IMG/VR virus record: IMGVR_UViG_2563366820_000003 | Span: 1-50,054 of that record | Length of the DNA stretch: 50,054 nucleotides | Strand: one strand, 5' to 3' | DNA from: a virus | Lineage: Duplodnaviria > Heunggongvirae > Uroviricota > Caudoviricetes | Shown: positions 23,801 through 26,800 of the stretch, piece after piece | Numbering within the stretch: the stretch's first letter is position 1 | How the letters are laid out: every line of letters starts with the position of its first letter | Position numbers: made by a program

Positions 23801-26800
23801 GGCAAAAATGGTCGGGTGTAAATACTTCATTCAGCTCGATGATGATTATCACGAGTTCCAGTTTCGGGTGGATCGCAACTATGACCAGGCCTATTTTCCG
23901 ATAAGGAAACTGGATGCGATCCTTTCTGAAATGCTGGCGTATTACGAATCAATACCCGCGCTTTCCATCGCTATGTCGCAGGGCGGGGATTTTCTTGGTG
24001 ACAATGGCGCTCATGCTTCATGGGTGAAACGTAAGGCAATGAACAGCTTTATCTGTTCGGTTGACCGACCGTTCTCATTCATGGGACGCATTAACGAGGA
24101 TGTGAATACGTACACGAATCTCGGTCGCCGTGGAGAATTGTTTATGACGATCGGTGCTGTCCAGTTAGGGCAGAAACAGACGCAGAAAAACAGTGGCGGA
24201 ATGACCGAGCTGTATCTGGATTCCGGAACCTACGTTAAAAGTTTTTACTCCGTCATGTATGCACCGTCATGCGTAAAAATCTCACTGATGGGCGCCAGCC
24301 ATAAACGCATTCACCACCAGGTCACCTGGAACAACGCTGCAGTAAAAATTCTTCACGAAAAATACAGGAAGAAGACACCCTGCATATCAATGGGGGTGAC
24401 AAATGATTCCGTATTCGAAAGTCGAGTCTCTGGCAGCGTGCCGGATGACTGCACAACAAATCGCTGACGTTCTGGATGTTGATCTGAATCGACTGAAAGA
24501 AAATCGGGAAGCAATGACAAATTTTTATGCGTCCATCCGTAAGGGCAGAGCGAAAGGTGAAGCCGAGTTACGGGCGGCATTGTTTAAGCTTGCCAGAAAA
24601 GGGGATGCCTTTGCTCTGCGCGAACTACTCAGGGTGGATAAAAATCAGGACTAACTGATGAGCAGACCGGACTGGGGGGCGTTGCAGCAGGAGTATATTG
24701 CTGAATACACCCGCTCCGGTATATCTCCGGTGGCATGGTGTGAAGCAAGGGGACTGAATTACGCAACAGCCCGTCGTTACATCAAAAAACCTCCGAAAAA
24801 TGCGCAGGCAGAAGTGCGCAAAACTGCGCAAAAAGGTGCGCAAAAGAAAACTGCGCAAAAGCGAACCGGCAAAACGGGGAAGGAAAAATCCAGAGTGGTT
24901 GTTTCTCCCGTTGCAGGAAATGATCAGGAAATTTTATTCAATCCCGATGAATTCGGCATCTCAGAGCAGCAGACGAAATTTGCGATGCTGGTTGCACAGG
25001 GGAGAAAACTCGTTGAGGCATATCGCCTGGCAGGATACGAGTCAGAGGGGAATGCGGCCTACGTAACTGCCAGCCAGCTCCTAAGAAATCCTAAGGTTTA
25101 TCGGGCTATCTCATGGTTCCGCAATCAGTACCAGAAACGCTATACCGCAGACCTGGATTTACTGGTGAGTCAGTTGATGGCCATTGTCCAGGCCGACCCC
25201 AATCAGTTAGCACAATTTCGCCGTGTTAACTGCCGTTATTGCTGGGGCGAGAATCATCTCTACCAGTGGCGCGATATAGCAGAATTTGATAAGGCAGCGG
25301 CGCAGGCTTCCAGAGATGGCAAACCCGAACCGGAATATGGAGGCCTTGGCTTTGTTGATAACGCCATACCCAATCCGGACTGCCCGAAGTGCTGCGGTGA
25401 GGGAACGGGGCAGCTTTATATGGCTGATACCACTCTGCTTGATGGGGATGCACGGCAATTATATGCAGGGGCAAAGCTCGGGAAATTTGGTGTTGAGATC
25501 CTGCTGGAGGATAAGTCTGCCGCCCGGCGCGAACTTATCAAGCTGATAATGGCGACGAAAGGAAGTTCTGCTGGTGGTGCAACTGACAGTCGCAATGATC
25601 TGGAGCTTGAAGGACTGAGGCTTCGCAATGAAAAGCTGCGCACTGAGATTGAAAACCTCAAAAAAGGCGTGGGTGGTGAGAATAACGAAATAATTATCCA
25701 CAACTCTCTGCCGATGCCGGGAGTGGATAATGTCGATTGAAATCTACCTCCCAAAACCTCATGAGGGGCAAATAGCTGCATGGACGGCGGCAATAGAGGA
25801 ACGCTTCCACGCGGTATGCTGTGGTCGTCGCTGGGGTAAAACGGTGATGCTGGTGAATATCGCTACCAGTTTCGCGACGCGGAAATTTGCCGTTCCTACC
25901 ACCGGGCAGCTTATCGCGGGTAGGGTGGGGATTTTTACCGCACAATACCGCCAGTACCAGGAAATCTGGGATGAAATTAGCGCCGTTCTGCAACCGCTGA
26001 TCCTCAGCCAGTCAAAAAATGAAAAGCGCATCATTCTCCGTAATGGGGGGCGCATCGACTTTTGGGTAACGGACAATAACAAACTGGCCGGGCGTGGGCG
26101 TAAGTATCACGCTGTGCTGATTGATGAGGCCGCATTCACTAAATCGCCGGAAATGCTCGAGGAAATCTGGCCCCGCGCTATACGCCCGACGCTTGTCGAT
26201 TACCGTGGCTGTGCCTGGGTATTTTCCACACCAAACGGTATCGACGAGAGCAATTTTTTCTACGCGATATGCCACGATGAATCCCTGGGATTTGTCATGC
26301 ACCATGCGCCAACTTCATCGAATCCGTATATTCCGAAAGAAGAACTGGAGGAAACGGAGAAGAAATCCGATCCGCGCGTATGGCAGCAGGAATATCTTGC
26401 CGAGTTCGTGGACTGGTCCAAAGACGCGTTACTTGATGTCGATAAGCTGCTGGTGGATGGTCAGCCGGTTGACATGCCGCCGCACTGCGACATGATTTTC
26501 GCAGTGATGGATACGGCACTGAAAGGCGGGACCGAAAATGACGGTACAGGCGTGGTGTATTTCGCCTGGGAGTCAACATATTCGGACGAGCCAAAACTGA
26601 CGATTATTGACTGGGATGTGACGCAAATTAAAGCGTCATTGCTTCCTGAGTATATCCCCGGTGTTTATGACAACCTCGAACGCCTGGCGAAATTATGCCG
26701 TCCGCGTCTGGGCAGCCAGGGAATTTTTATGGAAGACGCTGCGATGGGGGCGATCCTCAACCAGAAAGCGGAAACCGAAGGCTGGGATATGACGCCGATT

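Follow-up and report, generated by a model that had tools for sequence, protein, structure and literature searches.

Among the packaging signals described for tailed phages, the closest to the element considered here is the pac site of phage P1. It spans 161 bp within pacA and includes seven hexamers that carry Dam sites (PMC10028697), and synonymous mutation of these hexamers lowers phage packaging about 9-fold (PMC10028697). The pac signal of P22/Sf6-type phages lies inside the small-terminase gene (PMC9611059, PMC11260489), and in P22 it consists of one asymmetric 22-bp sequence (PMC9611059). A ring of helix-turn-helix (HTH) domains that touches the DNA at several points is a general idea for the small terminase subunits (TerS) of SPP1 and SF6 (PMC9611059, PMC4737164), and specific binding of TerS to pac has been hard to demonstrate for P22, Sf6, SPP1 and SF6 (PMC9611059). 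The present study deals with a cluster of five TGCGCA hexamers inside terS, the small-terminase gene of a prophage of the class Caudoviricetes. The gene is located on a stretch of 50,054 nucleotides (IMG/VR virus record IMGVR_UViG_2563366820_000003, positions 1 to 50,054), which is called the window throughout. The hexamers are probably a pac recognition array of the P1 type, lying next to the coding segment of a domain with homology to the PacA N-terminus of P1.

A preliminary description of the window had reported four full copies and one partial copy of a 9-mer, TGCGCAAAA, at 24801-24861, and an exact search of the window agrees with it. Four exact copies are found on the + strand at 24815-24823, 24825-24833, 24837-24845 and 24852-24860, with none elsewhere in the 50,054 bp, and the partial copy, TGCGCAggc, occupies 24801-24809. 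Matches to TGCGCAAAA with one mismatch number 24 in the whole window against 25.5 expected, which is chance level, and the signal is therefore one of clustering. Tandem Repeats Finder and a second repeat search also recover this array, the starts of successive copies being 10, 12 and 15 bp apart. As a cluster the 9-mer is thus real, but it is not the conserved unit: what is kept in relatives is the palindromic hexamer TGCGCA, mostly followed by A or G. This hexamer forms the core of the array, with five copies in 57 bp at successive periods of 14, 10, 12 and 15 bp, while 15 more are present in the remaining window. Under a Poisson model at the background rate, the probability of at least five TGCGCA per 57 bp is 1.2e-11 per position and about 6e-7 window-wide. 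The array also codes for the peptide NAQAEVRKTAQKGAQKKTAQK, and the translation confirms the Lys/Ala/Gln-rich linker that had been read from the repeats. Coordinates of the hexamers and of all other features are collected in Table 1.

The product of the surrounding gene matches Pfam Terminase_2 (PF03592) over residues 120-308 with 38.6 bits (cut-off 26.1; E value 2e-9) and PHROG 51 'terminase small subunit' with an E value of 3e-64, and its RefSeq relatives carry the annotation 'terminase small subunit'. The gene is common, being at least 80% identical in 895 of 5,426 complete E. coli genomes. An AlphaFold model of TerS places helices at residues 6-20, 24-30 and 35-38, with residues 6-44 confident (predicted local distance difference test, pLDDT, 75-83), followed by residues 49-90 with pLDDT below 50 and, starting near residue 91, by another helical domain that is predicted with confidence. 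Mean pLDDT of the model is 51 with a shallow alignment (only relatives at least 85% identical among the listed homologues), and we drew on it solely for the N-terminal helices (confident) and the linker (low confidence). From this low-pLDDT segment it follows that the array codes for the start of a flexible linker, a predicted disordered segment in which the protein sequence should be under little constraint. Both the length and the sequence of the linker differ between relatives. The Terminase_2 region contains a CxxC...CxxC pattern (terS codons 192-245, approximately 25231-25392) that is kept down to homologues of 41% identity and suggests a zinc-ribbon insertion in the core. A sequence search of PDB with TerS and the large terminase (TerL) gave no useful match, and the packaging mode is thus not inferable from a characterised TerL.

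Constraint on the hexamers acts at the level of DNA. In a wider sample, for which 125 loci were added from IMG/VR and from bacterial contigs taken at one genome per species, each terS whose product has the N-terminus 'PDWG..WCEAxGLNYxxARRYIKK' carries 3-7 TGCGCA, the first of them 8-20 nt past the motif. This combination is found in Escherichia, Shigella, Serratia, Buttiauxella, Kluyvera, Pantoea, Enterobacter, Leclercia, Citrobacter and Raoultella, and an Aeromonas phage terS shows the same N-terminal motif followed by a TGCGCA array. Two reading frames are used in the window array, hexamer 2 encoding V-R-K and the other four x-A-Q. In Klebsiella-phage homologues, whose proteins are about 40% identical, six hexamers use all three frames (A-Q, L-R and C-A), and over 70 distinct genes the hexamers are distributed among the frames as 292/62/10.

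Synonymous recoding was simulated with the protein left unchanged and codons drawn according to their usage in the gene itself. For the window terS, 0.57 hexamers were expected against 5 observed, and none of 5000 simulations reached 5. Over the 70 distinct genes the means were 5.2 observed and 0.76 expected, and for each gene at most 10 of 1000 simulations reached the observed number. The experimentally defined pac hexamers of P1, taken as a positive control, gave 8 observed against 2.8 expected in the same test (0/5000). In the linker A-Q dipeptides of the 70 genes, Ala is encoded by GCG in 288 of 309 cases, compared with 22% of the remaining Ala codons, and the wobble base before A-Q is T in 301 of 309. 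The residue before A-Q varies among at least nine amino acids (T, N, A, P, G, D, F, I and S, the last with both of its codon families). Taken over the 70 relatives, the two wobble bases within the hexamer are kept at 93-97%, whereas nearby synonymous sites are kept at about 56%. Shared ancestry is not the explanation of the wobble conservation, since in the adjoining segment that codes for the HTH the divergent lineages agree at only 44-62% of the third positions of conserved codons. The array does not behave as a simple in-frame coding tandem repeat, having periods that are not multiples of 3, mixed frames and preserved wobble positions. We are therefore highly confident that selection acts on the hexamers as DNA. 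The same hexamer is also typical of this gene context: in a sample of 121 IMG/VR arrays with three TGCGCA, 77 lie within 500 nt of the HTH of this family, and 2 more belong to the same gene, truncated by the end of the locus.

The domain encoded immediately before the array links it to P1. Pfam finds no significant HTH family in the isolated N-terminal 60 residues of TerS, and homology is therefore shown by profile-profile comparison with PacA: in hhalign, a profile of ten N-termini of the family against the N-termini of P1 and D6 PacA gave a probability of 97.8%, with an E value of 1.2e-12 over 47 columns. With the first 78 residues as a tblastn query, pacA of the P1-like phage D6 was a weak match (E value 0.1), and the P1 PacA N-terminus itself has weak matches to Pfam HTH_23 and HTH_24. 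In the annotated P1 genome, pacA has two groups of TGATC[AG] hexamers that do not keep to one frame, the first at nt 194, 201, 213 and 228 and the second at nt 324, 336 and 347. The two groups (nt 194-233 and 324-352) flank the annotated cleavage sites (nt 276-285) and an IHF site. The layout of the window, with an HTH followed by TG..CA palindromes 10-15 bp apart in mixed frames, is that of the left arm of P1 pac.

Furthermore, the repeated word changes together with the type of HTH. All 41 loci with the helix A-RR[YH] carry 3-7 TGCGCA and no TGCGAA, while the 5 loci with the helix A-KRY have no TGCGCA and 2-5 TGCGAA(T), often as the palindrome TGCGAATTCGCA. The first 78 residues of TerS also match the small terminases of Shiga toxin (Stx) phages, with 39.5% identity and an E value of 4e-4 for L0112 of 933W. 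That terS (positions 1501-2307 of locus L136), with the helix A-RTR, has [CT]GATCAT at nt 142, 154, 166 and 178, in a strict 12-bp period, in frame, with Dam sites and the encoded peptide IDHE/IDHK/TDHE. Unrelated HTH types on the same or a similar TerS core are accompanied by other words, namely GTTTCCAC/GTGGAAA in loci L010 and L129, GGGGCAAAA in L016 and L017, and GTACGCA in phage Chronis, where seven copies use two frames. The terS genes of Klebsiella phage RothD (L263 455-1195) and of Chronis (L264 1260-2000) are identical from about nt 271 on, but neither their HTH nor their array is the same, the array of RothD being TGCGAAT/TGCGAATTCGCA. The pair represents a natural cassette swap. In the homologues L035-L040 the protein begins with the Terminase_2 domain, and both the N-terminal domain and the array are missing.

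Taken together, the five TGCGCA hexamers are best explained as a pac recognition array, that is, as the DNA part of a P1-type terminase recognition, and we put the probability of this reading at roughly 0.6. It is based on the clustering of the hexamers, the DNA-level constraint, the domain homology to P1 PacA, the positional match with P1 and the co-variation of repeat and HTH, each of which is observed. The element would then be a modified form of the pac layout of P1, carried by a widespread terminase family of lambdoid prophages. In the mechanism that we propose, TerS would oligomerise via its Terminase_2 core, and its flexibly tethered, PacA-like N-terminal HTH domains would each bind one hexamer, the hexamers being 10-15 bp apart and thus separated by roughly one helical turn. 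Such multivalent binding would mark the concatemer, and TerL would make the first cut nearby, from which the packaging series would start. By inference, the hexamers are bound by TerS, the array is where cleavage occurs and packaging begins, and the phage packages in the headful mode. The preliminary description had already considered the repeats as a candidate pac element that doubles as a coding repeat. This proposal is strengthened by the DNA-level constraint and by the adjoining PacA-like HTH, and further by the P1 hexamers at the same position of pacA and by the change of repeat with HTH type.

However, several points weigh against this explanation. The hexamer TGCGCA lacks GATC, and no GATC occurs in 24795-24865, whereas the P1 hexamers contain GATC and cleavage in P1 is under Dam control (PMC10028697); this leaves no room for control by Dam methylation here. 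The window has a single cluster of five where P1 has 4+3 hexamers flanking the cut site. Within the window terS there is no second hexamer group, the next TGCGCA being at nt 980 and one-mismatch copies not being enriched; in relatives of the Klebsiella type, a second group is present at nt 360-398. A consensus scan, which may pass over a weak site, found no IHF consensus WATCAANNNNTTR within 2 kb of the array. P1 PacA has the same A-RRY helix yet a different hexamer (TGATCA), and A-RRY alone therefore does not specify the hexamer through a simple residue-to-base code; a general rule in which A-RRY reads TGCGCA was rejected on this account. Because HTH and array are physically linked, their co-variation could partly reflect co-inheritance rather than recognition. 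About one third of the sampled TGCGCA arrays lie elsewhere, in other HTH-first open reading frames (ORFs), in intergenic iteron-like arrays or in peptide tandem repeats, so that the array is typical of the terS/HTH context and not exclusive to it. The structure model of TerS is of low confidence overall, as described above. TerL has no close characterised relative, its tblastn matches being solely uncharacterised phages, and the literature search returned no study of virion ends, transduction or binding in phages with this TerS. In the same search, no full-text paper tied TGCGCA to pac or small terminases, and no packaging data were found for the relatives (Yersinia vB_YenM phages, Chronis and PdC23) or for Stx-phage pac sites.

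Four other explanations were weighed, and the one that survives best is that the array is a target of the TerS HTH in a non-packaging role, such as autoregulation of terS/terL through binding of TerS within its own gene. The constraint on the DNA and its co-variation with the HTH would suit regulation and pac recognition alike, and the difficulty of showing specific TerS-pac binding in other pac phages (PMC9611059) leaves room for such a role. We nevertheless consider it unlikely. The one characterised homologous system, P1, uses equivalent hexamers as its pac site, and 5-7 sites spread over 60 bp inside an ORF would be an atypical operator layout. Moreover, a scan of 24200-25200 revealed no promoter-like site within or beside the array.

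It is less probable still that the hexamers act via another factor, such as the product of the upstream 83-aa ORF, a host protein, or recombination machinery for which the array would be a hotspot of module exchange or deletion. The array stands exactly at the HTH/core boundary where N-terminal modules are swapped, the junction of the deletion fusion in Rac-SA53 is inside it, and the 83-aa ORF resembles part of another TerS family. This ORF is present in 10 of 40 array-bearing loci and missing from the other 30, however, and its product was rejected as the binder. A host factor would leave unexplained why the motif changes with the HTH type of the phage within the same host genera, and a recombination hotspot does not need wobble-level conservation of a specific palindrome. 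Given its place at the module junction and the Rac-SA53 fusion that breaks within it, the array may possibly act, in addition, as a hotspot of recombination or deletion. As to that fusion itself, the terS of Rac-SA53 (KU052037; L001 2912-3940) is annotated as a two-gene fusion by deletion, with the junction at a point corresponding to approximately 24810 of the window and with the HTH and three hexamers lost; two IMG/VR contigs (L106 and L108) show the same fusion.

A mere coding repeat of low complexity, in which replication slippage has produced a basic K/A/Q linker of no function at the DNA level, is very improbable. The peptide is repetitive (TAQK/GAQK) and falls in a segment predicted to be disordered, and copy number and linker length differ among relatives as slippage predicts. 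On the other hand, periods of 14, 10, 12 and 15 bp are not multiples of 3, copies in different frames encode different peptides (A-Q, V/L/M-R and C-A), wobbles are kept at 93-97% compared with about 56% at adjacent sites, and recoding gives 0.6-0.8 expected hexamers against 5 observed. By the frame and wobble tests this explanation is already largely refuted. Action at the level of RNA or transcription, through mRNA structure of the palindromes or antisense terminator hairpins, is scarcely credible: the fold of 24780-24880 is somewhat stabler than shuffles (z = -2.4; 3/200), and on the minus strand two hexamer pairs followed by T-runs (24857-24837 and 24820-24801) score as terminator-like, but any set of palindromes pairs and this z is expected from palindromes alone, the free variation of spacing and copy number in relatives leaves no conserved structure, the 3' flank in relatives is often GAA/GAC, which abolishes the T-run, and no Rfam match was obtained. 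The antisense hairpins are probably a by-product of palindromes with A-rich flanks.

Table 1. Positions in the window of the hexamer array, the terS gene and its parts, and neighbouring genes.
Feature	Position	Strand	Remarks
Full hexamer array	24801..24860		terS nt 144-203 (hexamers nt 144-200); candidate terminase recognition part of pac
TGCGCA hexamer 1	24801..24806		terS nt 144; T at codon position 3; codes N-A-Q
TGCGCA hexamer 2	24815..24820		terS nt 158; other frame, T at codon position 2; codes V-R-K
TGCGCA hexamer 3	24825..24830		terS nt 168; codes T-A-Q
TGCGCA hexamer 4	24837..24842		terS nt 180; codes G-A-Q
TGCGCA hexamer 5	24852..24857		terS nt 195; codes T-A-Q
terS, small terminase subunit	24658..25740	+	360 aa (1083-nt ORF); Pfam Terminase_2, PHROG 51
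N-terminal three-helix (HTH-like), PacA-N-like domain	24658..24792	+	terS codons 1-45; presumed repeat reader
Basic linker, predicted disordered	24793..24927	+	terS codons 46-90; first part coded by the array
Terminase_2 core	25015..25581	+	Invariant CxxC...CxxC (C192, C195, C242, C245)
terL, large terminase	25730..27058	+	Pfam Terminase_6N, PHROG 2; nuclease/ATPase expected to cut near the recognition site
Portal protein	27072..28511	+	Pfam Phage_portal_3, E value 1.6e-14
83-aa ORF	24403-24654		phrog_309 (a different small-terminase PHROG), middle part only, positions 145-218 of 319, E value 2.5e-22
TAGT/GREB1-like glycosyltransferase	23514-24467		PHROG 842 'beta-glucosyl-HMC-alpha-glucosyltransferase', E value 1e-100
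ParB_N-domain protein	22556-23542		Upstream of terS
LT-II enterotoxin A and B genes	21264-22482		A: Pfam Enterotoxin_a, E value 2e-119, C-terminal KDEL; B: LT-IIB, E value 3e-57

Upstream of terS are the 83-aa ORF, the TAGT-type glycosyltransferase, the ParB_N protein, LT-II enterotoxin A and B and lysis genes, and farther upstream are Q, replication genes, recE/recT and an integrase. This gene order indicates a Rac-like lambdoid prophage. The LT-II genes, with the endolysin gene on one side and the packaging genes on the other, further identify it as an LT-II-converting, Rac-like prophage related to Rac-SA53. The pair of ParB_N and glycosyltransferase genes directly upstream of terS is kept in relatives L002 and L004 and, judged by the families matched, may be a DNA-modification module; among the scanned ORFs, which cover part of the window, no TET/JBP or hydroxymethylase family was matched. 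For the portal protein, RefSeq relatives (L004-L006) name the homologue 'anti-CBASS protein Acb1 family protein', whereas Pfam points to a portal; either the RefSeq name misleads or the protein carries an additional domain. An insertion-sequence-type transposase (rve/rve_3 with HTH domains) is encoded on the minus strand at 13911-14999, in the early/nin region of the prophage. As a separate observation, intergenic TGCGCA arrays are present in unrelated high-GC viral contigs (L144 at 4593-4626 and 5463-5496, L216, L233, L257 and L246). Examples include GGTGCGCA repeats and paired TTGCGCA upstream of ORFs, and these are iteron- or operator-like.

The family is of interest beyond this prophage. 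It supplies natural sets in which HTH subtype and word are matched, which bear on the recognition of pac DNA by small terminases; some phage pairs, such as RothD and Chronis, differ solely in the HTH/array cassette. We tentatively propose a general rule, to which we would give somewhat less than even odds. According to this rule, the pac signal of a large TerS superfamily with N-terminal HTH would be 4-7 copies of a 6-8 bp word directly behind the segment that codes for the HTH, the word would be specific to each HTH subtype, and HTH plus array would form a specificity cassette that can be swapped between terminase cores. The superfamily would comprise P1 PacA, Stx-phage TerS, the Terminase_2 group of the window and others, with the words TGCGCA, TGCGAAT, GATCAT, TGATCA, GTACGCA, GTTTCCAC and GGGGCAAAA. 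If the rule is true, pac sites could be predicted by sequence alone for many prophages, toxin-converting ones included, and matched protein-DNA pairs would be available for learning how a TerS ring reads DNA.

Such predictions also have practical reach, as terS is common in E. coli, Stx phages have a homologous HTH and array, and the prophage of the window carries LT-II genes. A predicted pac site indicates where packaging, and hence lateral or generalised transduction of nearby DNA, would begin. In addition, the array might serve as a 60-bp tag for packageable plasmids, as P1 pac already does.

With G1P of SPP1/SF6, the window TerS shares the core domain family (Pfam PF03592) and the general idea of a ring of HTH domains that touches several points on the DNA, and differs in having an extra PacA-like HTH and linker ahead of Terminase_2. 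The pacL and pacR contacts of SPP1 flank the cut site, lie partly upstream of gene 1 and are not known to be arrays of a short palindrome. The array is located within terS as in P22/Sf6-type phages; however, it consists of short palindromes and does not show the P22 pattern, and the TerS families are unrelated. Stx-phage TerS is similar in its homologous N-terminal HTH, which is followed by four repeats at the equivalent position, and different in its word, since [CT]GATCAT with Dam sites is nearer to the P1 hexamer, and in its C-terminal part, which is unlike that of the window TerS. To our knowledge, the packaging site of the Stx-phage small terminases has not been characterised, and from its sequence the Stx-phage array is a candidate for a P1-like, Dam-sensitive pac array.

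Besides the differences in methylation, grouping and IHF site considered above, the window departs from P1 in three respects. The remainder of its TerS is a Terminase_2 core with CxxC...CxxC and not the C-terminal region of PacA, the prophage is lambdoid while that of P1 is a plasmid, and cleavage sites are annotated for P1 while the window array is known as sequence. Nevertheless, P1 remains the system with the most in common. In both, an array lies in the small-terminase ORF downstream of a homologous N-terminal HTH and is made of a clustered palindromic TG..CA hexamer, TGATCA in P1 and TGCGCA in the window. In both, the hexamers are irregularly spaced (7-15 bp), occur in mixed frames and exceed the number expected from synonymous recoding.

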